DNA from: Candidatus Kaiserbacteria bacterium | Lineage (GTDB): Bacteria; Patescibacteriota; Minisyncoccia; Phycocordibacterales; UBA918 | DNA length: 43,482 bases | Reading direction: 5' to 3' | NCBI GenBank assembly: GCA_043771035.1 | Contig: JAYVHQ010000017.1 | Span: forward strand, 1-43,482 | In this document: positions 16,558-43,482 of the stretch, one piece after another | Layout of the letters: each line of letters opens with the position of its first letter | Numbering within the stretch: position 1 is the first letter of the stretch | Translations under genes and position numbers: made by a program | Notes under the pieces: model-generated | Told to the model about the DNA's origin: nothing | Seen by the model: only the letters and a program-made list of their open reading frames with translations | Databases searched by the model: none

Positions 16558-16593
16558 ATGGGCTATATTGTACGAAGTTAACGACACTCTATA

Positions 16594-16917: not shown

Positions 16918-16961
16918 AGCTTCGCCTAGGACATTTAGCTTCGCCTAGGACTCTCCTAGGG
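16918..16961. repeat. Copies C1 and C2 of the AGCTTCGCCTAGGAC repeat, 19 bp apart.
   Basis: Positions 16918-16932 read AGCTTCGCCTAGGAC. Positions 16937-16961 read AGCTTCGCCTAGGACTCTCCTAGGG. Confidence 0.85.
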
Positions 16962-16974
16962 AGTAGGCAGACAT

Positions 16975-18212: not shown

Positions 18213-18213
18213 A

Positions 18214-19179: not shown

Positions 19180-19207
19180 GCGAATGATACTATTATCAAA
19201 AATATTT

Positions 19208-19253
19208 CAATAAAAAGCAATAACCACCGGTCTAATAGCGGTGGTTATTGCTT
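19208..19253 (-). terminator. Strong rho-independent terminator after the 631-aa gene.
   Basis: A perfect 15-bp stem pairs AAGCAATAACCACCG (19215-19229) with CGGTGGTTATTGCTT (19239-19253) around a 9-nt loop. On the minus strand it is followed by TTTTATTG. Confidence 0.8.
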
Positions 19254-19271
19254 CAATTTGAAATGTTTATT

Positions 19272-24737: not shown

Positions 24738-26180
24738 TTATTTACCGATGTTCTTCAACCAACCGAATGTACTCTGGAAGTTTTCCAAAATCAAATCGAT
24801 AATATTCTTTTCCTGAATTGGAGTGAACAGTACGAAGTTCTCTGACTGAATAGTGTTCTTGGCTTCGTCAGTACAATTGAGCCAAAATTGGTAGACAGTG
24901 GCGGGGGCGAAGTCAACAATTACCTCTACGTGGGTAGTTGAATACTGGACGTTTTCTTGTTCAATCGTGATGGGTTCTACGCCGCCGGCCACCCCTTCAC
25001 GATAGGTCATAAGACAACTGGCTGATTCATCAGTGTTCCACTCGACAATCGTCTGAATCCGGGATTCTCCACCGGGGAAAATAGTTGATTCGTTGGTCAC
25101 GTTTGTAATAATCGGCGGCGCGATATCACGGACGGTAATAAATTGAATTGGCTGGCTACGGACGCGATCTCCACCCGAGTTTTCTGCAATCACAAACGCC
25201 ACGTAGCGCGTACCCAGCGTCAGGTCCGCTAAGCGCATTTGGTGCGTTGTAGCTAAGGTCGGGCGACCAACTGAGTTTTGCACACCGGTGGTTAAGTCTT
25301 GAAATTCAATCAGGGCTTTGGCTGGCACAGTAGTATCCCACGCTAAAGTCGCGGCGTTTTCTTCTACTTTTACAATCCGCAGGTTACGTATATCGGGTAA
25401 AGATGCTTTGGTTCTAAAGGTGTAGTTGCGACTTTCACCGGTGATGCTGTACGTATCTTTAGACAGAACTTTAAAGGTATACTCCGTAAATGGCTCAAGT
25501 CCAATTAATCTAATTTCATGATCACTTGATGGCTCACCAGTTGATGACTGAGAAAATTCGTAGGTACCGTCAAAGCCCTGAGTTTTAGAAAATTGCACTT
25601 CTGAAGTAGCAGGTCTGTCGGTTACCCACTTCACCAGTGCAGTGTTTGTTTCTGGGATCACTGTTGGTGGCCCAACAATCGCTAAGACTTGGGAGATACC
25701 TTTGATGACCTTGATGGTTTCATCAATAATCTCTTGTAGTTTCGGGATACTGGTGATCTGCTTTATTTGTTCGATTATTTCTTTGGTTGGCTCAGAATCA
25801 CTCTTCCCCTCCCCGATAGCCGGTGTACCATCTGTTTGGATTTTGTAGTCAGCTGAAATGCCCTGGTTTCCTTCGAGGTCAGCTGATACGACACGGAAAT
25901 AGTAGGTTCGGCCGGGTTCGAGATTATTTAAGGTGACTGAGTGAGTGGTTCTGTCAGCTACTGGTACACGCACAATACCGTAGTCAGCTTGCAGGCCGTA
26001 GTTTACCGCCGAGTCAGCTTTTTCACTCGTTTCCCAGGTGAGCGTCACACTCTCCTTGGTCGTAGTACCAATTTTTACATTACTAATCTCCGGCGCTTTT
26101 GTGTCATTTGATTGAGCAATAACTGTCTGACTACTAAGAAGAGCCAGACACACCACTACAAATAAGAAGTACCCGCGCAT
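24738..26180 (-). CDS. Secreted protein with four FN3-like (purple-acid-phosphatase-N-like) domains and a helical linker.
   Basis: The signal peptide is MRGYFLFVVVCLALLSSQTVIA/QS. Repeats include VTLTWETSEKADSAVNYG...HSVTLNNLEPGRTYYFRVVS, ALVKWVTDRPATSEVQF...LEPFTEYTFKVLS, ATLAWDTTVPAKALIEF...LTLGTRYVAFVIA and a fourth copy. The gene starts 26 nt after the giant ORF stop. Confidence 0.8.
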   Translation of the reverse strand: MRGYFLFVVVCLALLSSQTVIAQSNDTKAPEISNVKIGTTTKESVTLTWETSEKADSAVNYGLQADYGIVRVPVADRTTHSVTLNNLEPGRTYYFRVVSADLEGNQGISADYKIQTDGTPAIGEGKSDSEPTKEIIEQIKQITSIPKLQEIIDETIKVIKGISQVLAIVGPPTVIPETNTALVKWVTDRPATSEVQFSKTQGFDGTYEFSQSSTGEPSSDHEIRLIGLEPFTEYTFKVLSKDTYSITGESRNYTFRTKASLPDIRNLRIVKVEENAATLAWDTTVPAKALIEFQDLTTGVQNSVGRPTLATTHQMRLADLTLGTRYVAFVIAENSGGDRVRSQPIQFITVRDIAPPIITNVTNESTIFPGGESRIQTIVEWNTDESASCLMTYREGVAGGVEPITIEQENVQYSTTHVEVIVDFAPATVYQFWLNCTDEAKNTIQSENFVLFTPIQEKNIIDLILENFQSTFGWLKNIGK

Positions 26181-26206: not shown

Positions 26207-29200
26207 CTATATCGATACTGGCGTAAAGACGTTGATACCGGAGTGCGGCGCACTGTTGACTCCAGTCGCTGGTACTGCAACACCCCAATAGATTGGAACA
26301 ACTACCGGTGGTGTAGGTGCGGTTGGTTTTGCTAATCCGATTGCAAGATTAGTTGGTGTCGTGCTCGACATCACGCTACAAGCCGTACATCCGCTATACG
26401 TAAAGGTTGAGGTCGCAAACCTTTGTTCATTGGCAGGAATACGTGAGCTACCACCATCAGAGAGATCGGTACCAAGCACTTCAATATTAAAGGCAATATT
26501 TCCAACATTAGTCACCGTGGTACTCGCATTTGCGGCACCAGTATTTCCGCCAAGTGCTAGCGAGCCATAATTAATCGAGTTATTTACTGACGCTGCTCTT
26601 AAGGTAATAAGTTCCTGAGCAATCGCAGACTCAAAGTCATATGTACCACTCGAGTCACGCACTTCAAGATAGGCTGACCATTTTTCACCTTCATAGAGAT
26701 TAACCGCTGGTAAAATATACGCATCAGTTGCTTCAGCGTTAAAGTAAATATCAGCACGACATGAAAGCGTACAAGTATTGCCGGCACAATTAATAAACGA
26801 ACAACTTGAACTTGAAGTCGTATCTCCTTTGTAACAATTATTAGTATTGGCAGTACAGCTTGGACCCGCTCCAGTACGATAGATAGTTGAACTGCCGGCA
26901 ATAATATCGGCATAGCCGTTAAGGTCAGTTACCGTTCCAGTAGCAAAGACCGTTGTTGTCGTACCGGGAGTTAGATTAATATCAAGACCACCATTAAGAG
27001 TCACCGCGCCAAATACCGGATCAAACTGGAGATTCATTTCAGCCACTTTGTTGTAGAAATCAAGTGGAGTGCCGCCATTGGTAACGCGCAAACAGTATGA
27101 TGAAGTCGCATTGATAGTCGGCGTCAGAACATATTCAAGTTCAGTATATTTATTTTGATTAAGGTTAAGTGCGGTTGTGATATTTGACGGACTTTCAATT
27201 ACTTTACCTGCAGCGAATGCACCCGAAGTCGAAGCCAGGTGATCGGTACTAGCGTCACCGTCAGCTACAAACGTTGAAGTCTGCATACAGATTGGTGAAC
27301 TACCACAAGAAGCTTGATTTGGTACAGCGCTAAAGTTCCCTGTTGGCACAGCTTCACAACTAGGTGCCGCTCCCTTTGGTGCCGCTTCCAGTCTAAAGGT
27401 TTGATTTACGATATCGAGACCAGAATTTTCAATGGCAAAGCGCAGGCGTTTATTTACACCCGTCACACCGCTGCCGGCTACGTTCTGCAGCTTCTCCCAC
27501 GTTGCTCCTCCGTCCGTTTGCTCGGCGCCAAAATAAACTGTCGGTGCAATCATCGCTTTAGCCCGGGCGGTATAACTATCCCACGAACCATTTTGGAACC
27601 AGAAGGTAAAGCCGACGCCACCAGTAGTGTAACTACTATCGGTTGTAGAAGCGGTGGCAACAAGTGCGCCAGCGGCAGTCCGCAAGTAGGCAGTCATAGA
27701 GTTGTTAGTCCTCCAGTCAACTTCTACTTCATACCAACCTGTCGCGTAGGTAACAGTAGATGAAGCGAGAACCGTTCCTGAAGAATCGTTGTCATAAATA
27801 TTTTTAGCAATCACCATTCTATCAATACCGAACTGTTGTAGACAGATAGCGTAGTTGTTGTTGTTTACCCCTGGGCTCTGCACCCCAAACAACGTACAAG
27901 CATCGTCGCCTGAACCGGCTGTATCAATGTACTGCATCCATCTGATGATTTGTCCTTGCGATACCGTCATTGTTGTTCTAAAGATACCGTCGGTAGTACG
28001 ACCACTCTTGTTTTGTGCTTCAAGTGAGTAGGTTCCTCCGTAGACTGGCGCTGTGTCAGTTTGGAACAAACTAGTATCACCTGAATACTCAGTGATGTTG
28101 TTATCTTCAAAATCATCAAAGGCCGCGAACGTTGTCGCTCCTGAACTCGTGTTAGCAGCAGTTGAACTACCGTAGTACATAAATGTAGTCGCTGTTTCGC
28201 TCGCAGGCAAATTAGGCACCCTAATCCATACTACGGCGTCAGTACTAGCGGTATAACGCTCAATCCAGTACGGAATTTGGGTCAGTCCATCACTTGACGT
28301 AAACCGCAAATCATCAAAGTCTGCCTGCATGTTACTGTCATAGGCCACATTAATTTTGATAGCTGAACTGGCGTAGCTGCTAGTGTCGCTATTTATTACC
28401 CGGACTCGCTGTCTGTAATCAAAACTGGTATTAAACCATTCGGAGGCGGTCGCTCCTTCTCCTCCGTCGTCGTTACGCCACCGATAATGGGTTTGCTGGG
28501 TCAGCAAACACCCACTGTTATCAAAGCGAATTGATCCACAGGCAGTTACGCCATCGATATCAAACGCTTCCCCGCCAATATTTCCGAAGCTGCCATTAAA
28601 CCGCCACGCATTGCTGGTTGAACCTGTCAGATTAACGTTAAAACCAGTAATCGCTGACGAAGTAGCAAATCCTACATTAGTAAACACTTTTGAAGCGTTG
28701 GCATCAAGTACCGAAGCTGCTACAGAAATCAGTGAGCCCCCGGCGCTTGTCAGTATATAGGAACCGTTTGAGAGGTTCGTGATTGTTGGCGAGCCCGTTA
28801 GAGTGAGGCCACCCGCTCCCAAGTTCGTCATAGTGTAATACTGCGCGTTAAGAGTTCCGCCATTTACGGTAAGGCCGTACGAACCACCGAACAAAGCAGC
28901 GACCGTGGTTGAGGTGGCGGTCGTACCGAGAATCTGAAGCGACCCAGTAGTAACTGTTGTAGAAGCTCCAGCAGCCATTCGCACATTCACTTGGCGCAAA
29001 CTGGCGCCAGCAAGTACCGTACCATCAAAGTCATTTGCATAGTTCCAGTATTCGGTAGTGGTAGCAATAGTCACATTACCGTAAATAGTAAGCGACCCAT
29101 CAACTCCAGCGTGATCTTGGGAATAAAAAGATGCTGAGCCTAAGACAGTCGTAGTAGCGGCACTACTATTCCATGCACGGATAGCCAGTGGGCTGACAAT

Positions 29201-32200
29201 TTCAAGCGTACCATACACATCGCCTCCCAAAGTTTTGGTATTAATGGTGTAGTCGCTCACACCAGAGAGTTTGAGTGTCGAGGTGGCCCAGGTTGTGTTT
29301 GCTCCGCCGACAGTATTAGTGAATACTCCACCAACATTTAGTATCGTATTCGGTTCTTTGGTAAAGGTACTAGCGCCGGTAATTGAGAAATTATTTGTTG
29401 TAGTTGCGTTACCTACAAAGTTCCAGCCACCGGTGGCACTTCCAAACACGACACTATACAGATTATTTGTACCAAAGTTTACTGTCTTACCGACACTGGT
29501 GGCGTTAAAGAGGACAGTACCGCTTGCGTTATTAACGGTACCCGAAGCTATGAGGAAATCCCCGCCGACAGACAACGTGCCGGTAGCAAGGGTGAGTGTG
29601 CCAGTTGCCATTGTGAGCGAGTCAGCTAGGGTTAGATTTACATCACTCATAGTGAACGGACCGACACCTGTGAATCTCACGGCAAAGAGGTTTGAGCTAC
29701 TTGCTTTAAGGCTAGCTGTCGACGTTGCGCTCATAATAATATCTGCCGTATTGTGCACAATTGTACCAGTCAAGTTTTCAAAACTAGCACCAACACCAAG
29801 GTTCCCCGAAGGCAAAGTCACTGTTCCAGAAGCAATCCTGAAGTTACCGGTTGTTGTAGCATTGCTGTCCGCCATACTCCATGAGCCACCTATACCCTGG
29901 AAGCGAACACTCGGTACTACAGAATCATCAAACCGTACGATATTGCCCGTAGTAGTGCTCGTAAACAAGAGGGCCGTGCCACCCATAGTAAACGCCCCAG
30001 CCGTGGCATTAAACGACGCACCGATAGTAGTAGTGCCACTACCAAATGTGATCGCGCCATTTGATTGTACAAATGAACGGCTGGTGGTAAAGATGGCGTC
30101 GGTGATATCCCAAGAACCAGCTCCGGTAAATGCAATGTTATAGAAGGTGTTGCTGTTTACATCAATGGTACGACCCGCTCCAGTTGTTGTGAAGGTTGTA
30201 GTTGACTGTCCCGCTGTAAAGAGAGCCCCTGTGCCAAATATCATACTGCCGCCAATGGTATGAGACTCCGTGCCGAGAGCACGGAAGGTGGCGTTGGTTT
30301 GCGCTTCAAGCGTTCCGTCTTGTGCCGCCCCACCACCGCCACCTGCCACTGTCACATTACCAGCTGGTTCAAAGGTCTTGCCGCTCCAGATCAGAAGCTT
30401 TTGATCAGCCGGCAGTGACAAGGTATCGATTCCTGCATCAACGGCCGTAAAGAGAATATCGCCATCGTCAGAGCTGTCCCAAATTGCCATATCGGCAATA
30501 GACAGTGGACTCGTGTTTTCATGTCGAACAATCACCCGGTTTTCATACAGATTCATATTACTGATTGATGACACGGGGTCGGCGCTCACGGTCACCGCCT
30601 TGCGGATATTGTTATCAATATACACAGAGAGCGTGTCGGCCGGACTAAAGGCAACATTTGGAATACTGTACGCTCCCGTCCCCGCGTTACATGACGCGGT
30701 GTAGGTAGTCAGTCCAGCAACTCTAAGCAGAATATTTTGCGTCACACCGTTACAGACTGGTGATACAGTCACTCCTTCATCACTGTAAACATTTCCTGAG
30801 ACAGTAATCAGCGCCGCTGAGTCATCCCAGACGACATAGCCAGGGTCACCCGCTGGATCATTATCGTACGCTTCACCAGAAAGTAGTCCCGTGTGGTTGG
30901 TAAAGCGCCACGAACTAATTGAGGTACCAGTTGCCGTAACGTTAGTAGCACCAGTTACGCCAGAGGATGAAGCAAACACGTTATTTGTGAAGTTTTTGGC
31001 TTGGTTGGCATCAATGACTGTTCCGTTCACGGTAATACCTGTACCACCATTTACTCCAATTAAATGATCTGTTCGTGAGAAGTTAGCAACTAGTGGGGTC
31101 CCCGTAAATACCACACCAGAGGCATTCATGTTACGGACTAAAACAGTATCCCACGTTGTTGACGCTGTCCCCGACAAGGTCAAACCATACGTACCAGCGC
31201 CCTGATTGGTGATTGTGGTAGAAGCGGTACTGGTACCGATTACTTCAAGCGAGCCACCAGCATACGAAGCACTTGAGCCTGACGCCAGACTGACATCTAC
31301 CTTACGTGCGCCGCCTCCTAAAGCCACTCCATCAAAGTCTGTAGCATAACTCCAATAATCATTACCTGTCACTACCGTGTAGGTACCGTAAATATTGAGC
31401 GTACCATCAACCGCAGCGTGATCTTGTGAGTAAATACTACCAAGCGCAGCGTAAGTCGAGGCACTACTATTCCACATTTTTACGTTGGTACTCGAAGCGA
31501 CAAACAAAGTGGCGTATACATCACCCACTGTTTTGGCATTTATATTTTTTGTTCCGCCGCCAAAGAAACTGAGCGTACTGCTAGCAAACGTAGTAGCCGC
31601 CCCACCGAGAGTATTTGTAAATGCTCCACCGATTGCCATAGTTGTACCCGAAGCCTGCGTGAAGTTTGTGTGATTCAGGAGCGTCAGCGCCACAGTCGTC
31701 GTCGCATTTTGCGACATGGTGAAGTTACCTGCCCCGTTATTTATAAGCAATGATCCAAAGCTTCCGTTCCCGGCGGCCACTGTATTTGAACCTGCTCCGA
31801 CCATCGCTACCAAGCCCCCGTTACTGATGAATGTACCAAAGTTAGTCCAGTTACTACCTACAGAAGTAGTTGCAATGTTGCTAGCTGAAAATGTTCCGTT
31901 ACTGCGAATTGATACACTGCCTCCTACGAGTAAAGCTGGATCACTGCTGTTTACATCAAAAGTAGTCGCTGCTGTGCCGCCAATAGTGAGATTATTTGTC
32001 ACCGCAATACCGACACCAGTTGGGGTATAGGTCGGAGTACCCGCGCCCGCATTAATATCGAGGTTATAGTAGGTGGTTGAAAGAACCTGCGCGCCGGCAC
32101 CACTGTATCTAAAGGTACTAGTATCCTCTTGCAAAGTACCACCTTCGACAAACACCGTGCCCGCACCTGCTAGATCCCAGTTACTATTACCAGCGACGAG

Positions 32201-35200: not shown

Positions 35201-38200
35201 TGGCACTTCAGTTAGACCATCACTCGTCGTAACTCTGATATCGGTACCACTCGCGTTAACTGAGCTAAAAAAAGTAGTCGGTAAGTTAGCGAGATTTACA
35301 TACACAGGGAAGTCAGTCACGGTGGTTGGTACCTGTGCACTATTTATCACTATTGGTTGTCTGGCAGACCAGCTATCGTTGTACCAAGAACTGGCGGCCA
35401 GCCCACGAATACGTAGGTTGTTAATAGCCGAACCATTCGCTCGTAAGCTGTTGGTGTTTTGCACAAGCAGCACTAGTTCACCACTATTGTGATTAAACGC
35501 CCCTGCACCTGTGACCGTGAAGTCACCACCGACGGTCAGTGTACTCGAAGCTAAAGTGACAGTACCACTTTGAATATTGAGATTACGAGTAGTTGTCGCT
35601 GCACTTTCGGCAAAGCTCCAGGCACCGCTACCGGCAAACACTAAATCATAGAAGGCATTGAGGAAGGCTGAGCCCTTTTGGATAATGGTTTTACCAGTAG
35701 CAGCACTCGTCATTCTCACTTCCCCATTGTTGTGCAGGAACGTACCGCCAACATTTGCAAAGTTACCACCAATAGTAGTTGTGCCGGTTGGTAGTGTGAC
35801 CGTCCCCATGGCGATAGTGAAGTTGTTATTTACAGCCAACGTTGCTGTTGTGAATGACCAATTCGCGCCAATACCACTAAAGGTGACGTTGTTGAAAGCT
35901 GAAGTACCACGGGCGATAGTGCCCGTACTGGTACCTACAAATGTCACCGTGCCTGACTGGGGGATAAACGAGTTGTTATTTGTCCAAGTTTTGTAGACAT
36001 TAATATTAAATCCAGAACCAGAAGCATTGAGGGTATCATCCGCACCAATTGTGACCGACTCGGCAGCCACATTACCACCGAGAGTAATGGTTTTGGCCGC
36101 ACCGTCAATGACAGCAAACCCAATGTTTGTAGAGGAGGCAGAGTTGTCAGTCCAAATATGAGTTCCTGATCCATCAAACGTGGTTGTACCTAGACCAGTG
36201 AGGAAACCGCCTGTACCGATGCGCAGGTTTTGCTCCAAATTAATAGTTGTTGTTCCCCGCGCAAACGTTCCAAAGTCTACAACCAGCGTACCAGTAATAT
36301 CAAGAGGCTTGTTAGCTGACCAGGTGGCACTGCCAGCAGTCTCGCCAAAAGTGACATTATGGAAAAACGTGCTTGTAGCTGAAGAAGTAGAGGTTATCGT
36401 CTCGCTCGAGGTTGTCGCTGAAAATATCACCGTCGATAGTGAAGGGATAAAGGTGCCAGTATTTAACCACGAACCACTTACCCTGACCGTGTTTGTTTCA
36501 GGTAAAAAACGTCCTTGATTCACGATATCGTGCACACTAATATTTGCCCCTGGCATATAGACCGCGGTAGTTTTAATTTTGAGTTTTGCGTCAGCACAAG
36601 CGGCTTCAACGCAGAGTGCCAAAGTTGAGCTACCGCTGACAGTAAAGAAGACATCCTCATCATCGCTACTATCAAATGCTCCAAACAAAGCATTTGATGA
36701 GGTCGCATTATCTGTCGAGCCAAACGTCAGGTGACGTTTATTTAATTCCATCTGAGTCACATCACCCACCCCATCATAGGTCGTGACACCAACTGCCTCA
36801 TCACTATCATTTACACCATCGATAAAAACGGTGATGGCATCACCTACAAATGCCGTCACATTAGGAATCGTCCAGGTGCCAGCTCCACTAATAACTGCTG
36901 TCTTGCCTGATTGCAAAATTCCATTTACCGCCACCGCTACTGTACCGGTAGCTACGGTAGTCGAAGCGTCGTATTCATAGGCAGTACCTGACACGTTAAT
37001 ACCTTGCGACCATTCCAGTGACCAGTCCTGCACAGTTGGACAAGTACCACTATTACAAAGAAGCTCAGCCTCAAGTTTAAGGACGGAGTAAACTGTTCGA
37101 TCAAGTGCCGCAATACTGACAGGACTACTCGTAAAGCCGGTGGAATTACCCGCCAGAGCTACGTCAGGCACCAAGACAAATACGCCCGGCGTTGTTTGAT
37201 AATACAATCGATAGCGCACATCACTAGCTGCTGGTGTAGAATCGTTCCAAGAAATTCGCTCCCAGCGGGGACCTGAACCATCAGCAAAATCAATTGGCGT
37301 TGAACGAATCGTACCATTAGTGAAGTTGGGATAAATTTGAGCAGCTGCTGTAATTGATCCATTGTAAGGCTGGGCAGTAATTGACGGGCTAGTACTAAAG
37401 TTAAACAGAGTTGACCAGGCATTGCCGTTCCATTGACTAGTACTGTACCGATCAGGAGCTGAACCATCATCAAAAGCAAACGTGTGTATAGTGCCGTCTC
37501 CACCACGAACAGTTTGCAAACTCCAACTGTCATTAACAGTATCAAGACTAAATTCTCCAGAGAAGGTACCGGTGGCAGTGGTGTACTGCTGATAGCGAGC
37601 GACTATTGTATCTGAATACGGAATAATCACGTCACCATCTACCCCTTTTAGAGTCTGGTACTCACAATCAACTGGCTGGCCTAATTTACTATTTCCGTCG
37701 ATAGTCATTAGTGTACTCGCACTCCAAGCACTACCGTTCCAGGTCTTGACACCAATATCAATTACGTCATCAATGTAGCAGAATATGAGATTGTCGGTTC
37801 CAACATCACGCTTTAATGAACCCCATTCAAAGTCATTTGAAATAGCTGAAGATGTTGGAGTAGTCCAACTCGAACCGTTCCACGAAGAAAAGATGAAGCT
37901 GGCTAGAGTATCGTTTGAAACTACCGCCAACGCTTGTCCGCCAGAGGCTTCATAGTTTAGAGCGATTCCTTCATTGCTATTTTCGTTAATGTTACCAAAA
38001 GTGAGTGAATTACTGAAGCTTGAACCATTCCACACTAGCGCTTCGTAGTCCGTAGCGCCAGTATTAGTATGACGAAACACGGCAATAATTTCATCTGATA
38101 CAGGATCAGCTGCCAGCTCAACCCACTCACAGTTATTGACGTTGCTAAGTGGAAGCGAAGTTGACGCAGACCAAACGGTACCATTCCAGATGCTGAACCG

Positions 38201-41200
38201 GGCTTCTGTACCCTCACACGCTACGGCAAGCAAATCACCTGAAGTAGTCTCGTACTCAATATCAAACCGGCGTTTGATAGCGTCTGTCGCTTCTGTATAA
38301 ATTTCATACATGTTGTTCCATGACTCAGACACACCATCATAAATTTGAATGTTGATATCAAGATCTGTCCCCAAGGTCGCCAGCGCATACTCAGGTCTCG
38401 TAGGCGAAGCATCTAGTCTAGTCCAGCGTATTTGCGCTCCTACAGTATCAGCAGAAGCAGCATTGTTCCAACTAGTACCATTCCACAAACGAAATTGTGG
38501 CGCCTGTCCTGTTCCCTCACCGTAAGCTGCCATCACCCCACTGACTACCGAAGTAATTTGCGCTCCGCCGAGAGTTGTTTCAATATCCTGATTAGTGTTA
38601 GTTAAAAACTGTTCACCCGTTGTCTGATGCCAAACGGAAACTAAAATACTAGTATCGACCGTAATACTTTCTGGTTGAGAATATTGTGACCAAGCGTTTG
38701 TTCCGAGCGGATCACGGGCCCGAACACGCCACCAGTAGGTACTACCGTTTGTCAGCGATGAGTTTAAAGTGTAACGTACGACATTACCAGAAACAAACGG
38801 TGTGATATCCGAACTAGAGGCTGTGTTTACAAATCCAGCATTGCTACCAGAATTGAATGTCGACGATGACACAAAGTCAGCCGTGCTTGAATATTGAAAT
38901 TCATATTCCAAACTATCACTCTGTGGGTCAGTGGTTGAAAATGTAAAAGCTGGTGTGGTCGTTGCCACTTTAGCGTTATCAAAAGGCGTTACATGAATCG
39001 GTATCTCAATAGTTTGACCCCAAATCAATGTCATCGACAAGAGACGTGGTAAGGTCGGTGTCCCAGAGAATACTGAGGTGATTCGCAACTCGTTATAAAG
39101 AGTTGTATCAAGCGTGCCAAGAGCAACTGGTGAAGCAGTTAGACCAGTACTGTTTCCAGCAATTAAACTATCTGGCACTAAAGCAAAGTTCTCACCACTA
39201 ACCCGATATTCCACATAATGTCGAATAGTTCCTGAAGTGACATTTTGCGCAAACGACAACTCACCCCAGGCGTTTCCAACATCTCGGTCATCGTAATCAA
39301 TAACTGTAGTGGTAGTTGTACCAGCGGTAAACCCGGTGTTAATTCCTACATCATTGGAGCTGGTACCAGCCGTTACATCGAGTAGGTTCCCCGTTGTGAA
39401 TTGCTCACCCGTTGTCTGGAACCAGGTAGTAATCAAAGTACCAGAAGCTATCGTAAAGCTACTAGGGACTGACCAATCACTATATGTACCAGAGCCGTTA
39501 TCATCTTTTGCCCGCACTCGCCACCAATACGTATTTCCCGTTGTCAGAGCGCTACTCGGAATAAACCGGATAGTTTGTCCAGTAGTATAGAGACCACGCT
39601 CAGACGGTGACGCTAAGTTAGTAAAGAGCGCAAAGTTTGCATTTGACTCATTTGTTAAGTCAGGTGAACCAAAAGCGTAATCCGTGTCAACCATGATTTC
39701 ATAAGACACTTCATCACTCACTTCATCTTGGGCTGCAAATTCAAACCAGGGTGTCGTTGAAGAAAATTGTTCGTTGTCAAAGGGGGCTGACAATACAGGG
39801 ACCAGTGGTGGTGAATTAGTAATTAAACGAGGAAATTGCTGGTAGTCACTTAACGTTGAACCATCGGTGTATACCATGCGGAAGCAGTAATTAGTATTTG
39901 GCAAAGCAGCATTATTTTGAATAGTAAAATCCCATTCAGCTGCATTGCCGACCGGCAGTGCTTTGCGGTTACTATTTGTAGGATTACCTTCTTCATAGGT
40001 TTCTGCATTATCTGAACCAGTAAGTACCGTGCTAGGTAAGGCTGCCCCATCACCAACAAACTCTTCCGCCGACAATGCATAGAAACCAGTTGGATTAGAC
40101 TGATTGGTCCGTTCAGTTGAAATGAACCCCGCCGCCCGAGCCACTGACGCAATTCTGAATTCGTCAATTCGCCCCCGATGGAAAGCACCACCAGCTGGAT
40201 CGGTACTACCGATGGCTAAACCTGTTAATGTTGGAGGATTATCTGAGTTAGTGATACTCGTAATAAGGGCGCCATCGAGATAAATACCCATAAAAGCTCC
40301 AGCTCCTCCAGCTGACACTAATCCAATATGCGTCCACTTATCACGGTAGGCGGTATAGTTGGCACTAATACGACCAGGTACCGCACAACAGGTACCGTAA
40401 TCCCAATAAATTGTGTTATCGCTCCACGGCGCATGAGTCGCCAGACGCTCAGATCCTGCAGCCGTAAATCCAAACAAGTTAGAATTCTGTACTTCGCTAG
40501 TATTTACTCTAGACCACGCGGTCACAGTGACGGGTGCCGAGCTCCAGGCAAAGGCTGCGTTAGTAAAGCGATCATTTACTCCATCAAAAGTAACACCTTT
40601 ACCGACTGGACTGCTGGTACTATTACCAGCCGTCATTCCGCCGACTGATGTCAAATTTCGCCCATTAACGGTGCTATCAGTCATGGTGGCACTTGGATCA
40701 GTACCTAAGTGATACACCGCTTGATAGCCGTTGGTCCAAACATTATTTCGACCGTAGGTAGCAGTCGGGCCGTAGCCACTCGCGCCCGAGTTACCATAGT
40801 AGATAAAGAAATCTGTGTCAGTAGTAGAAGCGAGCGTCGCTTTAAAATGAAGCTCACCGATTTTAGCTATCGTATCAATTGATACAAGTTCAAATGGAAC
40901 TTCAGTTAACCCATTGCTAGTAGTAATTCTAATATCGTCACCATCAGACTGGACACTAGCAAAGAAACTGTCAGGTAAATCGTCGAGGTTAACGTACACA
41001 GGGAAATCGGTTTGGGCACCATTAACCAGCGTACCTTTGATAGTAATTTTTGATCGACGTAACCAGGAAGCACTCAACCAATCTGCTCCCACAATTGCGT
41101 TTGCGTAGCCTCGCCACAAGGCGGTAGAGCTACCGACTGCCCCAATATCAGTCCACTCTGTAATGGCACTACAAGAGAGACCGTCGGCGTACTGAAGTTT

Positions 41201-43482
41201 AAAAGCCGCGGTTGATGTAGGGAGAGTCACATTAGCGCCTTCGAGCGATAATCTAAGGCGAATAACATCATTAATGTTGACAGATTCTGATGAACTAAGT
41301 GGTGTATTCTCAGCAATATCAGTCACTCCAAGGGGCCACGGGTCAATTGGTGTAAGGAAACTGCCATTGTCATACCAGCGGTACGTACTTTGAATTAGCT
41401 TTGGCTTTCTGAGCCATGAAACTGACCAATCATCCAAACTAGCACTCGCTGAACCAAGTGTGGTTAAGGTTGCCTCAAGACAGATTTGGCTATAGGTAGT
41501 CGTTGACAGGCCCGTTAATACTAACGGCATTGACCCGGTTCCGAAACCAGCACTGTTTCCCAGTAGCGCTCCATCGGGTACGTACGAATCGCATGTACTA
41601 GTACTCGTGTATCTAAGTCGGATTAGTACATCAGTCCCAAAAGGTTCTGTTGAAGCAAAACTTAAATCTCCCCAGGTAGGCTGATTAGGCACAGCTGAGA
41701 AGTTTATCGGTGTACTCCTTACGACACCTTGCGTAAACTGAAAACGTTTGGCAGCCATCTCAAAAGTTTCAAAAGGTATACCAATGATAGATGAGGGGTT
41801 CGGTGCAATTGTTTGTTTTATTGCCCAACTCGTCCCGTTCCAGTAGGAAGATTCGAGCTCGTCACCAGCAGCCACATCATCATGCCACATTGAAACAATA
41901 GTGCCGTCCCCTGCTCGCTCAGTTTGACCCCAAAATAAACCAGCTGTACCAATCCCCGTGATTGACTGTTCAGCTGACCAGGATGAACTGGCGTAATTAA
42001 ATACTGAATAGCGTGCTCCTACCGTATCCGAATACGACATTAATATATTACCTGTCCGTCCAGCGGTAGTTTCAAATTCACAGTCAATCGGCCGAGCTGC
42101 TTCGGAGTTACCAGCAATATCTTGTTCAAAAAATGTGCTCCAAATACCGCCGTTCCACCTCACCACCCCGATATCAGCATCAGCATCTATGTAACAAAGT
42201 GCCATGTTATCAGAATTAGGATCAGCTGCCAGGTTACCGAACTCAAAATCATCACCGAGCGCTTGCGTTGCATTCACTGTAAAGCTTGTACCATTCCAGG
42301 TGGTATAAATAAGATTGTTGGCAGCACCATTGGTCACGGCAATAATTGCTTGATCACCAGAAGATTCATATTTTAAACCAATCCCCGCCCGACCTTCTTG
42401 CCCCACCTGTCCAGCACCAATCACTCGGTTTGCTATCCAAGCATTTCCATTCCACACTAACGCTTCGTACTGCAAAGTAGCGCCACCATCTCGTACCACC
42501 AAGATTAGCTCGTCCGAAGCTGGGTCAGACGCAATTTCTAAATAGTTACACACACTAACTGAACTTACTGTAATAGATGTCGTAGCGCTCCATGAACTTC
42601 CATTCCAGATACGGTACACCGGACCAGCCCCGTTACTACAAGAGACCGCCATTGCATCACCAGACATACTTTCGTACCCCACAGCCAGACCTCGTCTAGT
42701 AACGTTGGAAACTGTACTACTAAGCAACGTTCGATTGCCCCACGAACTACTACTTGCGCTGTAGACTTGGGCGTAGGCCGCACTGGATTGATCAATCGTA
42801 AGCATCATGTACTCATTACGACTTACACTGGCTGCCGTTCTAACCCAGTTTATAGTACCACCGACAGCCACTGCGCTTTGCTCAGCGTCCCAGCTTATCC
42901 CATTCCATAAACGGTATTTAGGAGTAGCACTGGTACCGTCACCGTAGCCGACAATAATTTCCGTACTTACTGCCGCATCAACGGTTACACTATTATTTAC
43001 TCCAGGAGAAACTGCACCAATGAGGGTATTGCTTTTAAACTGTCCATTAAGGTTTTGATACCAATTCGGAACAATATCACTAAGGTTAACGGTCAGACTC
43101 TGGGTGGTGGAGTAATCACCAAATTCTCCCGAACCATTTACATCTTTCGCCCGCACTCGCCAGTAGTAAGTGGTAAGGTCTAGCAGTACGTCAGCTGGTT
43201 GCAATTGAAAGCGAACTTTATTGGCTTCAATAAACGGTGAAGTGTCAGTTGAAGAAGCGGTGTTTGAAAATCCAGCATTAGCACCTGACACACGCACAGT
43301 AGCAGTTGCAAAATCAGAAGTGGTTGAAATAGAAAATTCATACTGGATATCAGATGTACCATCAGGATCATTACTCTGGAAATCAAAGTATGGTGTAGTA
43401 GAAGCAAATCTTATGTTATCAAAAGGTACACTAAACATCGACGGTGCTGGTGCTCTGAAGTTGAGACTGGCTTTTTTCCACA
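26207..43482 (-). CDS. Giant surface (adhesin-like) protein, 5'-truncated by the window edge. At least 5,757 codons lie inside the window.
   Basis: Track ORF 26207..43438 starts at an internal Met. The same frame stays open for the remaining 14 codons to the window end (WKKASLNFRAPAPS-MFSVPFDN). The first residues lack a signal peptide and sit in the middle of a repeated linker+PFDN module. The protein is a mosaic of recognisable extracellular modules, listed as sub-features. Confidence 0.9.
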   Translation of the reverse strand, partial: WKKASLNFRAPAPSMFSVPFDNIRFASTTPYFDFQSNDPDGTSDIQYEFSISTTSDFATATVRVSGANAGFSNTASSTDTSPFIEANKVRFQLQPADVLLDLTTYYWRVRAKDVNGSGEFGDYSTTQSLTVNLSDIVPNWYQNLNGQFKSNTLIGAVSPGVNNSVTVDAAVSTEIIVGYGDGTSATPKYRLWNGISWDAEQSAVAVGGTINWVRTAASVSRNEYMMLTIDQSSAAYAQVYSASSSSWGNRTLLSSTVSNVTRRGLAVGYESMSGDAMAVSCSNGAGPVYRIWNGSSWSATTSITVSSVSVCNYLEIASDPASDELILVVRDGGATLQYEALVWNGNAWIANRVIGAGQVGQEGRAGIGLKYESSGDQAIIAVTNGAANNLIYTTWNGTSFTVNATQALGDDFEFGNLAADPNSDNMALCYIDADADIGVVRWNGGIWSTFFEQDIAGNSEAARPIDCEFETTAGRTGNILMSYSDTVGARYSVFNYASSSWSAEQSITGIGTAGLFWGQTERAGDGTIVSMWHDDVAAGDELESSYWNGTSWAIKQTIAPNPSSIIGIPFETFEMAAKRFQFTQGVVRSTPINFSAVPNQPTWGDLSFASTEPFGTDVLIRLRYTSTSTCDSYVPDGALLGNSAGFGTGSMPLVLTGLSTTTYSQICLEATLTTLGSASASLDDWSVSWLRKPKLIQSTYRWYDNGSFLTPIDPWPLGVTDIAENTPLSSSESVNINDVIRLRLSLEGANVTLPTSTAAFKLQYADGLSCSAITEWTDIGAVGSSTALWRGYANAIVGADWLSASWLRRSKITIKGTLVNGAQTDFPVYVNLDDLPDSFFASVQSDGDDIRITTSNGLTEVPFELVSIDTIAKIGELHFKATLASTTDTDFFIYYGNSGASGYGPTATYGRNNVWTNGYQAVYHLGTDPSATMTDSTVNGRNLTSVGGMTAGNSTSSPVGKGVTFDGVNDRFTNAAFAWSSAPVTVTAWSRVNTSEVQNSNLFGFTAAGSERLATHAPWSDNTIYWDYGTCCAVPGRISANYTAYRDKWTHIGLVSAGGAGAFMGIYLDGALITSITNSDNPPTLTGLAIGSTDPAGGAFHRGRIDEFRIASVARAAGFISTERTNQSNPTGFYALSAEEFVGDGAALPSTVLTGSDNAETYEEGNPTNSNRKALPVGNAAEWDFTIQNNAALPNTNYCFRMVYTDGSTLSDYQQFPRLITNSPPLVPVLSAPFDNEQFSSTTPWFEFAAQDEVSDEVSYEIMVDTDYAFGSPDLTNESNANFALFTNLASPSERGLYTTGQTIRFIPSSALTTGNTYWWRVRAKDDNGSGTYSDWSVPSSFTIASGTLITTWFQTTGEQFTTGNLLDVTAGTSSNDVGINTGFTAGTTTTTVIDYDDRDVGNAWGELSFAQNVTSGTIRHYVEYRVSGENFALVPDSLIAGNSTGLTASPVALGTLDTTLYNELRITSVFSGTPTLPRLLSMTLIWGQTIEIPIHVTPFDNAKVATTTPAFTFSTTDPQSDSLEYEFQYSSTADFVSSSTFNSGSNAGFVNTASSSDITPFVSGNVVRYTLNSSLTNGSTYWWRVRARDPLGTNAWSQYSQPESITVDTSILVSVWHQTTGEQFLTNTNQDIETTLGGAQITSVVSGVMAAYGEGTGQAPQFRLWNGTSWNNAASADTVGAQIRWTRLDASPTRPEYALATLGTDLDINIQIYDGVSESWNNMYEIYTEATDAIKRRFDIEYETTSGDLLAVACEGTEARFSIWNGTVWSASTSLPLSNVNNCEWVELAADPVSDEIIAVFRHTNTGATDYEALVWNGSSFSNSLTFGNINENSNEGIALNYEASGGQALAVVSNDTLASFIFSSWNGSSWTTPTSSAISNDFEWGSLKRDVGTDNLIFCYIDDVIDIGVKTWNGSAWSASTLMTIDGNSKLGQPVDCEYQTLKGVDGDVIIPYSDTIVARYQQYTTATGTFSGEFSLDTVNDSWSLQTVRGGDGTIHTFAFDDGSAPDRYSTSQWNGNAWSTLFNFSTSPSITAQPYNGSITAAAQIYPNFTNGTIRSTPIDFADGSGPRWERISWNDSTPAASDVRYRLYYQTTPGVFVLVPDVALAGNSTGFTSSPVSIAALDRTVYSVLKLEAELLCNSGTCPTVQDWSLEWSQGINVSGTAYEYDASTTVATGTVAVAVNGILQSGKTAVISGAGTWTIPNVTAFVGDAITVFIDGVNDSDEAVGVTTYDGVGDVTQMELNKRHLTFGSTDNATSSNALFGAFDSSDDEDVFFTVSGSSTLALCVEAACADAKLKIKTTAVYMPGANISVHDIVNQGRFLPETNTVRVSGSWLNTGTFIPSLSTVIFSATTSSETITSTSSATSTFFHNVTFGETAGSATWSANKPLDITGTLVVDFGTFARGTTTINLEQNLRIGTGGFLTGLGTTTFDGSGTHIWTDNSASSTNIGFAVIDGAAKTITLGGNVAAESVTIGADDTLNASGSGFNINVYKTWTNNNSFIPQSGTVTFVGTSTGTIARGTSAFNNVTFSGIGANWSFTTATLAVNNNFTIAMGTVTLPTGTTTIGGNFANVGGTFLHNNGEVRMTSAATGKTIIQKGSAFLNAFYDLVFAGSGAWSFAESAATTTRNLNIQSGTVTLASSTLTVGGDFTVTGAGAFNHNSGELVLLVQNTNSLRANGSAINNLRIRGLAASSWYNDSWSARQPIVINSAQVPTTVTDFPVYVNLANLPTTFFSSVNASGTDIRVTTSDGLTEVPYELVAIDTVAKTGELHFKAPTVSSSTNTTFYIYYGNGTASAYSATSTFGRNNVWTNGFEAVYHLGTNPTSVLVDSTVNGRNLTSAGGMGAGNSVAGIIGNSIDFDGVNDTLTNGTYSWTSTPVTVTAWSNVAVSEVKVASMFGFNAGAGDDRFAAHAPYSDNTLYWDYGNCCGATGRITAGYTAYRDKWTHVGLVSAGGAGAFMGIYLDGAQITTGAASDDPAVITGFAIGAAGSGGGGGFHDGRVDEFRLASVARTFGWIATEENNQSSSTAFYSVGAAQSRTVRVFTDTNTTILGNYVSELGGDATFPTGVLGVAGSFTNVASFGANNGTVRFNSTGGAETIAVGSSTFATLEFNSASGIFTVTQNATATVAINLTSASAFTLQSGLTLAALGTFSNAATASSTTWTGSTLSLSGVDAAINLKSHSGDAYATILTNGDTDMTMWNSTATTYSTASTSSIYSADHAAVDGDLNIYGDYVRTTGTEYWSFATDFDGAALTGTTSRQVDVRIASSSKVGLTSASLNLVGGASASTTIDAISGTFTLSATTSTITAQNFTVTGIDASGLRLNASTTLAIFQDGFFNVVPGHTGITISSTTVAQNPSAQYFGIGFATSSVGGGTNVTLTGTTSSFVWFRLGTGNLYGEAYDGGDANPGSVRWDDSSNSITISGVVYADDGITPLSSPTCDGTTPNVRVVVNNGTFTASTTCAAGTGTYTLAGVNYIGDPKITVYLNTNGGVNGSVVTKTPSGNITNMNIYAGRVITRHQDIAPLTIADMTSFDNDDDSDIQFVATTTGVTALRVLAPNSLFVFATTTFAPGGNVTLHGNASTSAIEGTLQLGTAATFTASGTETHTLAGRLLLATTSVLTSASSTFIFNASTTGKSITSPNTVTFNAVQFTGVGGGWNITAPLIVNGNMDVATGTVTGTSNVTLTNGSLSGEGTLSFGSGTTTINRTNTLGGTRAWTFNNLVLGSGLVAGTTTRASVATTTILGRLTISPAHFLVAGNSNWDLAGAGTVFVEGGTLQEDTSTFRYSGAGAQVLSTTYYNLDINAGAGTPTYTPTGVGIAVTNNLTIGGTAATTFDVNSSDPALLVGGSVSIRSNGTFSASNIATTSVGSNWTNFGTFISNGGLVAMVGAGSNTVAAGNGSFGSLLINNGAGNFTMSQNATTTVALTLLNHTNFTQASGTTMAIGGAFTNTLGGAATTFASSTLSFFGGGTKNINAKTVGDVYATLFVASSTNVKMWNSSASTYAALGSIYSQDHAAVDGTLNIYGTYTVVTGNDYWSYATDFDGVALGGGARKVDVSLASGSSASYAGGSLEVIGTSTASTTITNQGAGTYGLTLSGTASTTWDTVLVRNMNASGVVFTGTPLVANFSRTDHLIGVNGGTGITVNGTVIDANQAKNFTNNVFASSSGVTGATNVTATGTSISSWRFTNHTGLLSGEAYDNDPAGDPGYVVWDDSAALITVSGNVYSDEGVTVSPVCNGVTQNILLRVAGLTTYTASCNAGTGAYSIPNVAFSPADTLSVYIDNNIRKAVTVSADPVSSISNMNLYENRVIVRHENTSPLSIADMAIWDSSDDGDILFTAVDAGIDTLSLPADQKLLIWSGKTFEPAGNVTVAGGGGGAAQDGTLEAQTNATFRALGTESHTIGGSMIFGTGALFTAGQSTTTFTTTGAGRTIDVNSNTFYNIAFTGAGSWDITDAIFTTSRSFVQSNGAITFGSGTTTIGASFNATAGAFTMGGTALLFTSTTTGNIVRFDDSVVPSVRFQGIGGSWSMADSNATTTGNFRIASGTVTLPSGNLGVGASFENLTGTIVHNTADIIMSATSTASLKASSSNLFAVRFTGVGPFTMSDVNLTLADSLTMATGTLTLATGTLSVGGDFLIASGTVNNASGTVLFNATSVGKTVNFGTNNLYSVVFGSATGGWNFVGNATTTNNFSITGASTFTKEPNTILNVGGVFTNTVGGANTTWATSTLKLSGVSDYTINTKTLGGDVYGTLEIVSPLAIRAWNSSAATTTVLGSASFYSQDHAGVDGSLTIYGNVTIATTTEYWNYANDFDGTVLAGASLRQVNVRMAAGASTTVTTGSLQILGTTATSTTVAALFGGSYGLTVNGGTLNAQYYTMTNLGAGGLTLTGSPTITNLSNGSYILTSAGGSLISVAASVLDANASKVFTNVGFATSSAITGFNVNLTGSTSNAWRFNGSFGNIGGEAFDIDGVTACGSIRFDNSGCLLTQQTHYRWRNDDGGEGATASEWFNTSFDYRQRVRVINSDTSSYASSAIKINVAYDSNMQADFDDLRFTSSDGLTQIPYWIERYTASTDAVVWIRVPNLPASETATTFMYYGSSTAANTSSGATTFAAFDDFEDNNITEYSGDTSLFQTDTAPVYGGTYSLEAQNKSGRTTDGIFRTTMTVSQGQIIRWMQYIDTAGSGDDACTLFGVQSPGVNNNNYAICLQQFGIDRMVIAKNIYDNDSSGTVLASSTVTYATGWYEVEVDWRTNNSMTAYLRTAAGALVATASTTDSSYTTGGVGFTFWFQNGSWDSYTARAKAMIAPTVYFGAEQTDGGATWEKLQNVAGSGVTGVNKRLRFAIENSGLDIVNQTFRLEAAPKGAAPSCEAVPTGNFSAVPNQASCGSSPICMQTSTFVADGDASTDHLASTSGAFAAGKVIESPSNITTALNLNQNKYTELEYVLTPTINATSSYCLRVTNGGTPLDFYNKVAEMNLQFDPVFGAVTLNGGLDINLTPGTTTTVFATGTVTDLNGYADIIAGSSTIYRTGAGPSCTANTNNCYKGDTTSSSSCSFINCAGNTCTLSCRADIYFNAEATDAYILPAVNLYEGEKWSAYLEVRDSSGTYDFESAIAQELITLRAASVNNSINYGSLALGGNTGAANASTTVTNVGNIAFNIEVLGTDLSDGGSSRIPANEQRFATSTFTYSGCTACSVMSSTTPTNLAIGLAKPTAPTPPVVVPIYWGVAVPATGVNSAPHSGINVFTPVSI
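26210..27025 (-). other. Class-2 C-terminal module of the giant ORF, homologous to 19275..20215.
   Basis: See the alignment under 19275..20215. The protein ends ...PIYWGVAVPATGVNSAPHSGINVFTPVSI, with no TM and no LPXTG. Confidence 0.55.
27560..28430 (-). other. DUF2341-like + ConA/LamG-like jelly-roll cassette 3.
   Basis: The DUF2341-type part reads FDYRQRVRVINSDTSSYASSAIKINVAYDSNMQADFDDLRFTSSDGLTQIPYWIERYTASTDAVVWIRVPNLPASETATTFMYYGS. The lectin-like part follows: ...GTYSLEAQNKSG...GWYEVEVDWRTNNSMTAYL. Confidence 0.6.
28500..34370 (-). repeat. Three tandem super-repeats of 2.3-2.4 kb. Each has parallel beta-helix-like T/S/G/N-rich repeats plus an Ig/carboxypeptidase-regulatory-like insert. 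The third is truncated.
   Basis: The landmark IYS(A/Q)DHA(A/G)VDG has Y codons at 33817, 31432 and 29125, giving periods of 2,385 and 2,307 nt. Motifs are collinear in each unit: EYWS(F/Y)ATDFDG, GEAYD..D..PG.V.WDDS, ISG.VY.D.G and I(T/V)RH....PL(T/S)IADM. Confidence 0.85.
34370..35380 (-). other. DUF2341-like + LamG (Laminin_G_3-like) cassette 2.
   Basis: The DUF2341-like part reads WSARQPIVINSAQVPTTVTDFPVYVNLANLPTTFFSSVNASGTDIRVTTSDGLTEVPYELVAIDTVAKTGELHFKA. The LamG-like part reads NNVWTNGFEAVYHLG...VDSTVNGRNLTS...IDFDGVNDTL...YRDKWTHVGLVSAGGAGAFMGIYLDGA...GRVDEFRLASVART. Confidence 0.65.
35400..37030 (-). other. Partial zeroth super-repeat (second half only) plus beta-helix repeats.
   Basis: INVSGTAYEYDAS...TWTIPNVTAFVGDAITVFIDG...MELNKRHLTFGS parallels ITISGVVYADDG...TYTLAGVNYIGDPKITVYLN...MNIYAGRVITRH of the full units. 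Repeats of the type NVTF.G.G..WS follow. Confidence 0.5.
37380..38540 (-). other. WNGxxW beta-propeller 2.
   Basis: About seven blades recur: FRLWNGTSWNNA, FSIWNGTVWSAS, ALVWNGSSFSNS, FSSWNGSSWTTP, VKTWNGSAWSAS and SQWNGNAWSTL, spaced ~50-60 aa apart. Confidence 0.5.
38648..38995 (-). other. FN3-like PFDN module 3.
   Basis: TPFDNAKVATTTPAFTFSTTDPQSDSLEYEFQYSSTADF...STYWWRVRARDPLGTNAWSQYS. Confidence 0.5.
39441..39795 (-). other. FN3-like PFDN module 2.
   Basis: APFDNEQFSSTTPWFEFAAQDEVSDEVSYEIMVDTDYAF...NTYWWRVRAKDDNGSGTYSDWS. Confidence 0.5.
40100..41070 (-). other. DUF2341-like + LamG cassette 1, nested inside a YRW/YCFR module.
   Basis: The DUF2341-like part reads WLRRSKITIKGTLVNGAQTDFPVYVNLDDLPDSFFASVQSDGDDIRITTSNGLTEVPFELVSIDTIAKIGELHFKA. 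The LamG-like part reads NNVWTNGYQAVYHLG...TDSTVNGRNLTS...VTFDGVNDRF...YRDKWTHIGLVSAGGAGAFMGIYLDGA...GRIDEFRIASVARA. Confidence 0.65.
41800..42990 (-). other. WNGxxW beta-propeller 1.
   Basis: Blades recur: YRLWNGISWDAE, YRIWNGSSWSAT, ALVWNGNAWIAN, YTTWNGTSFTVN, VVRWNGGIWSTF, FNYASSSWSAE and SSYWNGTSWAIK. Confidence 0.5.
43085..43438 (-). other. FN3-like PFDN module 1.
   Basis: VPFDNIRFASTTPYFDFQSNDPDGTSDIQYEFSISTTSDF...TTYYWRVRAKDVNGSGEFGDYS. Confidence 0.5.

Follow-up and report, generated by a model that had tools for sequence, protein, structure and literature searches.

The window analysed here (the whole 43,482-nt stretch, positions 1 to 43,482 of contig JAYVHQ010000017.1 in the Candidatus Kaiserbacteria assembly GCA_043771035.1) carries on its minus strand a giant open reading frame (ORF) that is open through the last base of the window. 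Read from 43480 down to the stop at 26207-26209, the translated frame comprised 5,757 sense codons. The gene fragment takes up 17,276 of the 43,482 bases (39.7%), in agreement with the 40 percent given in a preliminary description of this DNA, which had proposed from the letters of the window that the gene lacks its N-terminus. The mechanical ORF list had chosen a methionine at 43438 as the start and counted 5,743 codons from it. Met 43438 is an internal residue and not a start. In our judgement the window very likely ends inside a single genuine gene of ~20.9 kb, of which the ORF represents the 3' 82%.

As rRNA, tRNA and marker genes were absent from the window, the lineage was assigned by relatives only. 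All seven related loci in GTDB belonged to metagenome-assembled genomes (MAGs) of Kaiserbacteria, Parcubacteria or Patescibacteria, and the named homologues came from Patescibacteria and Daviesbacteria. Judged by these relatives, the source is an uncultured, ultra-small relative of Candidatus Kaiserbacteria (Parcubacteria, Patescibacteria/candidate phyla radiation, CPR).

Continuation of the open frame beyond the window

From 43480, the minus strand reads WKKASLNFRAPAPS, then the Met codon (43438-43436), then FSVPFDNIRFASTTPYFDF. Translation confirmed that 14 in-frame sense codons precede the Met inside the window, as the preliminary description had noticed. It had also compared the edge with two later junctions of linker and module, and this likeness was upheld: the string PLVPVLSAPFDNEQFSSTTPWFEF was found at amino acids (aa) 1225-1248 of the fragment (window 39737-39808) and the string IPIHVTPFDNAKVATTTPAFTF at aa 1493-1514 (38939-39004), and the module at the edge (fragment aa 11-168) was homologous to both later copies in a self-alignment (E=2e-22 and 1e-59). 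In the second copy of the junction, a Leu stands opposite Met 43438 when the strings are compared by eye. The DNA 5' of the Met is G+C-rich and coding-like, while the other genes of the window have A+T-rich leaders and hydrophobic N-termini. The sequence following the Met is a mid-module FN3 strand; that no signal peptide is present had been described before. The chance of 14 stop-free codons is about one half and they were given little weight; because these codons are not significant on their own, the in-window case rests on module homology and on the non-start-like context.

For the sequence to the right of the window we relied on other assemblies of the same population, the source contig itself covering the gene up to the edge. 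Judged by their names, the samples may be biofilms of glacier-fed streams. The gene just downstream of the giant one (24738-26180) encodes a 480 aa protein, which occurred with identical sequence on nine metagenome contigs, and in three of the six contigs displayed from these nine a 6,963 aa giant product lay wholly inside the contig; overall, the 6,963 aa gene call was present in four assemblies. Those contigs were 99.7-100% identical to the window in nucleotide sequence, with 0-1 aa differences over the last 3,323 residues, and the C-terminal 10 kb of the giant gene was 99.8-100% identical across six contigs. The 5' end was reached via the upstream neighbour: the synteny of orthologues led to a homologue search with a cohesin protein and to the candidate P0165, which was chosen by its sources and contig count, and which proved to share its contigs with the giant gene. 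Three contigs (L024, L025 and L028) overlapped the window from 43482 to 37266 (6,217 nt) with 99.89-99.97% identity, and a shorter one (L026) overlapped its last 1,386 nt with 99.86% identity. All four read past 43482 in a stop-free frame, ...TTDATFLL being followed across the edge by WKKASLNFRAPAPSMFSVPFDN... The frame ran 1,206 codons past the edge to the called GTG, giving the 6,963 aa product and ~3.7 kb more sequence. The earlier proposal of a gene longer than 17.3 kb and a protein longer than 5,757 aa was thus confirmed, the other assemblies extending the frame to 6,963-6,982 aa depending on the start (see next section).

An exact 47-mer from the window edge had no match among the representative genomes of GTDB. 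When residues 1-700 of the fragment served as query for homologues, the full-length protein was not returned (best match 44% identity), and look-ups of exact-sequence clusters gave none for the window fragment, the Met-started version or a 3,982 aa partial product.

If Met 43438 were the real start, the protein would have 5,743 aa and the 14 codons upstream would be a chance open stretch, as expected about half the time; moreover, the genes of the window lack a clear Shine-Dalgarno sequence, so its absence at this Met is uninformative. However, instead of an in-frame stop within a few codons upstream, four other assemblies had 1,225 more open codons, counted to the preferred start. The sequence encoded by these codons has 45-53% identity to the N-terminal parts of the homologues. 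Furthermore, the first residue of the window aligned to positions 1,087-1,704 of the homologues of at least 5,000 aa among the best 148 of 10,324 related proteins, and what follows the Met is mid-module sequence free of a signal. The extended sequence refuted Met 43438 as the start, and we regard a genuine 5,743 aa protein as practically excluded.

Start of the gene, homologues and integrity of the assembly

The true start is favoured by the orthologue alignment to be a GTG 19 codons above the called one, which gives 6,982 aa, a gene of 20,949 nt and 1,225 codons beyond the window edge. This upstream GTG was also chosen by the gene calls on three partial contigs. It was preferred because of a GGAG 7 nt before it, the position of the nearest in-frame stop (25 codons above), the resulting N-terminus and the alignment of that N-terminus. 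The product begins MNILSKLLRKSTIISLLALVLVCGFFVYA-YVDRTVYTTEQLVIIPGKVTSDTW, with MNILSKLLRKSTIISLLALVLVCGFFVYA directly before YVDRT, and aligned residue for residue with ten orthologues (M..KAFF.K..L....F.LLVG.FVYA-TIDRTVY.TEQLV.IPD.V.SD.W). It has a basic n-region, a single hydrophobic helix of ~20 residues and a conserved V-x-A motif, and residues 3-35 are the sole hydrophobic stretch in the whole 6,982 aa. The V-x-A before DRT fits the -3/-1 rule of signal peptidase I. The predicted N-terminus may be a cleaved Gram-positive-type signal peptide (cut after VYA) or an uncleaved signal anchor; in either form, the export signal that the preliminary description had expected elsewhere was found in the part missing from the window.

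Promoter and terminator predictions near the start were no better than those in shuffled sequence. The short spacer between the stop of the cohesin gene and the start of the giant gene (L024, ~11600-11640) contains a perfect GC-rich hairpin, aacgcgcaggc / tttac / cgcctgcgcgtt. In the orthologues (L019-L023), this position is occupied by another hairpin, after which comes a conserved ggttgttatgta. The hairpin was not called in L024 by the simple terminator scan; it may be a terminator, an attenuator or a processing site.

The seven loci in GTDB Kaiserbacteria and Parcubacteria encode proteins with 57-64% identity to the giant protein, and in six of the seven, 1,250-1,290 residues precede the position that corresponds to the window edge. 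The homologue P0015 (7,169 aa) aligned in one segment of 6,806 columns with 42% identity, and P0010 was colinear with 60% identity over 5,347 columns; P0019 (7,456 aa) and P0016 (7,083 aa) were also colinear with the giant protein. An exhaustive search of representatives yielded the 10,324 related proteins at E <=1e-3, many of which match the DUF2341-LamG unit only; among the best 148, 32 have at least 5,000 aa. In the orthologue of Parcubacteria OLB19 (L021), the giant ORF ends at a length of 2,883 aa and is followed by ~4.8 kb (14878-19650) without an ORF of at least 100 aa. This copy may be decayed or frameshifted, or the sequence may be masked.

A giant ORF with internal repeats could also be an assembly artefact, produced by repeat collapse, by expansion or by a chimeric join of genes. 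The periods of the internal modules are 2.3-2.4 kb and ~1 kb, and short-read metagenome assemblies can mis-join repeats; the preliminary description had voiced the same worry for the 2.3-2.4 kb repeats. The worry was not substantiated. These repeats correspond to two tandem modules of 798 and 764 aa (E1 and E2), which share 39-47% protein identity and gave no blastn match, and the propeller modules are 36-41% identical to each other at the protein level. The only internal repeat at the DNA level is that of the DUF2341-LamG units (61% protein identity; 68% over 758 nt), a divergence far beyond what would mislead an assembler. In addition, contigs of two naming styles (k141_ and scaffold_), assembled from several samples, gave the same 6,963 aa product, homologues in other species were colinear over the whole length, and the tandem E pair was found in most homologues (dozens). 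Since the internal repeats are strongly diverged and the same tandem pair is kept in homologues, repeat collapse or expansion appears very unlikely from the sequences, and an artefact of any of these kinds is highly improbable.

Domain anatomy and predicted role of the giant protein

The features of the gene and its product are collected in Table 1. The domain that follows the first FN3/Ig-like module contains seven WNG-type repeats, the number of blades being judged from the sequence only. Its AlphaFold2 model had a predicted local distance difference test score (pLDDT) of 78.9 and a predicted template modelling score (pTM) of 0.72. In the PDB, the best matches of the model were the Photorhabdus PLL/PHL fucose lectins and the Burkholderia BP39L lectin (E=2e-10, target-normalised template modelling (TM) score 0.67), with sialidases and fungal fucose lectins lower down. 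The E1 model (pLDDT 82.6, pTM 0.61) was all-beta, its last 300 residues forming short, regularly spaced solenoid strands, and matched PDB entries only weakly: Antigen 43 (E=1.7e-3), then EtpA, RsaA and tailspikes.

Table 1. Features of the giant gene and its predicted product. Fragment numbers count from the window edge; full-length residue number = fragment number + 1,225.
Feature	Position	Strand	Basis or remark
Giant gene, C-terminal 5,757 codons + stop	26207..43482	-	Open frame, read-through contigs, colinear homologues
Predicted export signal	Full-length residues 1-35, beyond the window		Hydrophobic stretch 3-35
Ser/Glu/Pro/Thr/Ala-rich low-complexity spacer	Full-length residues ~85-290, beyond the window
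Beta domains	Full-length residues ~290-790, beyond the window		Weak MG2 match
Three diverged repeats, ~150 aa each	Full-length residues ~790-1225, beyond the window
Internal Met codon taken as start by the ORF list	43436..43438	-	Residue 1240 from the preferred GTG; 14 + 1,225 (L024) sense codons before it
FN3/Ig-like module, copy 1 (PFDN...TTPxFxF...YWRVRAKD)	42977..43450	-	Self-alignment; weak Pfam Ig_Rha78A_N
WNG repeat module 1: predicted lectin-like beta-propeller + following beta domain	41375..42973	-	AlphaFold2 model, PDB matches
DUF2341 + LamG (concanavalin-A-like lectin), copy 1	40061..41098	-	61% identity to copy 2 (by homology)
FN3/Ig-like module, copy 2	39338..39808	-	Pfam Ig_Rha78A_N 3.7e-11; self-alignment; short linker domain follows
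FN3/Ig-like module, copy 3	38549..39004	-	39.5% identity to copy 1, E=1e-59 (module + propeller start); weak fn3, Ig_J_second
WNG repeat module 2, predicted second propeller	36971..38551	-	36-41% identity to module 1, whole length
Unannotated stretch, ~520 aa	Between second propeller and second DUF2341-LamG unit	-
DUF2341 + LamG, copy 2	34358..35404	-	Pfam DUF2341 4.4e-07, Laminin_G_3 3.6e-10
E1, 798-aa all-beta module, beta-solenoid-like strands flanking an Ig-like insert	31862..34255	-	AlphaFold2 model
E2, 764 aa, tandem copy of E1	29570..31861	-	39-47% identity to E1
Partial third E-type module	28451..29569	-	36-46% identity to E1, E2 over ~350 aa
Third DUF2341 domain	28094..28321	-	Pfam DUF2341 1.9e-22, 80 bits
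C-terminal region, 628 aa, unannotated	Fragment aa 5130-5757	-	After third DUF2341
Stop codon	26207..26209	-	C-terminus ...GINVFTPVSI

Pfam scored two of the DUF2341 domains (80 and 30 bits, cut-off 23.4), and the remaining copy was assigned by its 61% identity. This first DUF2341-LamG unit (window 39791-41383, minus strand) was left unscored by Pfam for both DUF2341 and Laminin_G_3 despite that identity, presumably a filter effect; Pfam tables would then under-report in such a compositionally biased protein. In the N-terminal 1,224 aa, Pfam at E <=1 gave only weak MG2, Wzz, SusF_SusE, CopC and TNF matches. The NCBIfam scan had no matches, and sequence searches of the PDB returned nothing useful. 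A hydrophobic segment, an LPXTG motif and RTX repeats are all absent from the C-terminus (...GINVFTPVSI).

We judged the function from folds and domain families only, and on these the giant protein is probably a Sec-exported, sugar-binding surface adhesin or fibre. The N-terminus would direct Sec-dependent export. The protein would be held on the cell by the N-terminal helix or, if it is cut after VYA, by the strongly conserved segment that follows, and a spacer of ~200 residues rich in Ser, Glu, Pro and Thr would raise the remainder above the cell surface. This remainder of ~6,700 residues would form an elongated all-beta fibre in which two PLL-like beta-propellers are combined with two or three DUF2341/LamG units, FN3/Ig spacers and the 800-aa beta-solenoid-like modules. 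Such a fibre would probably bind glycans of a host cell or of a biofilm matrix, serving as the adhesin or attachment fibre of an episymbiont.

Several observations weigh against this picture. The N-terminal 1,225 residues are known through other assemblies of this population and not through the source contig; beta-propellers readily match one another; the matches of the E modules to beta-helix adhesins were not significant (best E=1.7e-3, TM <0.2); and end-to-end conservation of 42-60% with fixed synteny is more usual for a core structural component of the envelope than for a fast-evolving, host-specific adhesin. The unusually even conservation suggests the main live rival, in which the full-length gene is real and its product is a core structural component of the envelope (a sheath, an S-layer-like coat or a scaffold), perhaps organising its cohesin and dockerin neighbours. 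Apart from the end-to-end conservation, the synteny is fixed wherever the Kaiserbacteria and Parcubacteria loci extend upstream; more than 100 Parcubacteria homologues of the neighbouring cohesin protein show 65-91% identity, far above the values for the giant protein; and the S-layer protein RsaA was among the weak fold matches. However, Pfam detected no SLH or other known wall-binding domain and no internal cohesin or dockerin in the giant protein, and multiple lectin-type modules suit ligand binding better than a lattice. We consider the structural role unlikely, while giving it more room than any other alternative.

The protein might instead be released, as a polymorphic toxin or a polysaccharide-degrading enzyme acting on prey or host. 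Glycoside hydrolases, lyases and sialidases can likewise have beta-helix and propeller folds, and such enzymes were among the lower fold matches, and FhaB-like giant exoproteins of Patescibacteria have been discussed (PMC11809585). However, neither Pfam nor NCBIfam detected a catalytic, toxin, two-partner secretion (TPS) or peptidase family, the C-terminus is conserved and colinear among the homologues rather than polymorphic, and the next gene encodes the 480 aa FN3 protein and not a small immunity-like product. A released exoprotein is therefore very improbable, and the surface fibre remains the preferred reading.

Large beta-rich repeat proteins of Parcubacteria (OD1) were called adhesin-like as early as 2015 (PMC4508563). 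In a 2024 survey, 149 Patescibacteria proteins at NCBI were longer than 4,000 aa, of which 82 carried FhaB and/or DUF2341, and a role in adhesion or host interaction was proposed (PMC11809585). The present protein shares with the class described there its length (>4,000 aa), DUF2341 (PF10102) and its place in a Patescibacteria genome. The preliminary statement that proteins of this size are rare in bacteria holds in general; for Patescibacteria, however, giant DUF2341 proteins are on record (PMC11809585). It resembles the proteins of the Patescibacterium danicum paper (PMC11809585) in group, size class, DUF2341 and inferred extracellular adhesion role. Unlike in those proteins, no FhaB or haemagglutination-type domain was detected by Pfam. 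Furthermore, the published proteins had no full-length homologues and rapid domain shuffling was suggested (PMC11809585), whereas many colinear full-length homologues and a conserved synteny were found in our analysis.

The Giant1-5 proteins of Apilactobacillus kunkeei (3,000-8,000 aa; PMC12863079) are also very large and extracellular and take an outsized share of a small symbiont genome; they belong to an unrelated lineage, and the likeness is one of description. The Omnitrophota Archaeovorins and Dockerin-type giants (bioRxiv 10.1101/2023.11.21.568195) are likewise giant, mostly extracellular and membrane-associated, come from uncultured bacteria with small cells, and have a dockerin/cohesin theme and a proposed role in attachment to other cells. 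However, they have at least 30,000 aa, many transmembrane helices, enzymatic and SecA-like domains and internal dockerins, in contrast to ~7,000 aa, one N-terminal helix, no detected enzymatic domain, and cohesin and dockerin only in neighbouring genes in the present case.

The seven-bladed PLL/PHL and BP39L lectins (PDB 5c9l, 5mxe, 8q83, 6gxr) matched the propeller model best in structure (E ~2e-10, target-normalised TM 0.65-0.68, ~375 columns), and both have repeats that contain Trp. Those lectins are free-standing and of ~350 aa, whereas the predicted propeller is part of a 7,000 aa chain and has 12-15% sequence identity to them. The lectin family is further characterised by conserved sugar-binding sites between the blades and by binding of fucose or O-methyl sugars. 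Antigen 43 and EtpA/HMW1/FhaB also have long, all-beta, solenoid-like segments rich in Thr, Gly, Asn and Ala, to which the E modules had no significant match; in contrast to these adhesins, the giant protein has no C-terminal beta-barrel and no N-terminal TPS domain. As a member of the CPR, the organism is not known to have an outer membrane.

Other known types of large surface protein were considered and rejected. For an RTX/type I secretion adhesin (LapA, SiiE, MpIBP, FrhA), no GGxGxD or GxGxGxD occurred in the 6,982 aa and no RTX match in Pfam, and next to the neighbouring ABC half-transporter and MacB/FtsX pair no membrane-fusion or TolC-type gene was detected. A two-partner secretion exoprotein (FhaB/HMW1/EtpA) was dismissed with the Pfam scan of the N-terminal 1,224 aa, which had no TPS domain. 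An autotransporter of the Antigen 43 type was dropped with no beta-barrel Pfam match in the C-terminal 778 aa and a weak fold match to the Ag43 passenger. As for a sortase-anchored adhesin (Ebh, Mobiluncus adhesin), the sole LPxTG is internal (residue 1077) and there is no hydrophobic window outside residues 3-35. A cellulosome-type scaffoldin did not fit either: there was no cohesin or dockerin match in the giant protein, and the cohesin is in a separate upstream protein of 525 aa.

The 5,743 aa protein of the ORF list is thus an artefact of truncation at the window edge; the true product exceeds it by about 21% and has its export signal in the missing part. Statistics on domains, localisation or size drawn from the window alone would be wrong. 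With genomes of typically ~1 Mb in this group, a gene of 21 kb would take up a few per cent.

Gene neighbourhood

Upstream, past the right-hand end of the window, the genes encode in this order an ABC exporter (584 aa), a dockerin protein (694 aa), HSP20 (154 aa), the cohesin protein P0165 (525 aa; L024 10001-11578) and, directly after it, the giant protein. The four GTDB loci whose upstream sequence was long enough showed the same order, and two loci with shorter flanks kept HSP20 and the cohesin protein. The cohesin gene always came after the HSP20 gene. Downstream, the first gene encodes the 480 aa FN3/purple-acid-phosphatase-N protein and is followed by an ABC ATPase with a MacB/FtsX permease; further on lie unannotated proteins, a Big_6/DUF4215/dockerin protein, a Big_13 protein and a second dockerin protein. 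From the gene content on both sides, the region is therefore a surface-protein island.

Three dockerin proteins flank the giant gene, of 371 aa (17097-18212, minus strand), 252 aa (9766-10524, minus strand) and 694 aa (L024 7178-9262). At the level of sequence, the cohesin protein and these three indicate a non-cellulosomal cohesin-dockerin system in a CPR bacterium. One could go further and regard the giant protein, the cohesin protein and the flanking dockerin proteins, in a cluster that also includes the ABC exporter and HSP20, as one conserved non-cellulosomal surface machine. Kaiserbacteria and other Parcubacteria would then hold their hosts by a cohesin-dockerin-assembled organelle around a 7,000-aa lectin fibre, a speculation which we put forward tentatively and think rather unlikely. 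The truncation itself is an edge effect, the class of protein has been noticed before, and current views are not contradicted; of all that was observed, only the conserved cohesin/dockerin neighbourhood could open a new direction. Together with the end-to-end conservation, this cluster makes the giant protein a prime candidate for mediating contact between these uncultured episymbionts and other cells.

Two smaller observations concern the rest of the window. An ORF of 2,053 aa (1898-8059, minus strand) had no Pfam match. Its 3' end and a 439 aa ORF (913-2232, minus strand) overlap in different frames over 335 nt, and one or the other may be a wrong call. Near ~15528, in the intergenic region between 14103-15254 (minus strand) and 15828-16400 (plus strand), two contigs from other samples (L001 and L002) leave the window sequence, while L011 reads through as the window does. 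The last 135 nt of L001 and L002 are the same sequence, different from that of the window, which opens an ORF, MKQKHHFVLTKRDRERIEDWLEVHTQTE, and both contigs end there. This ORF may be transposase-like, and the switch looks like an insertion-sequence polymorphism between strains.

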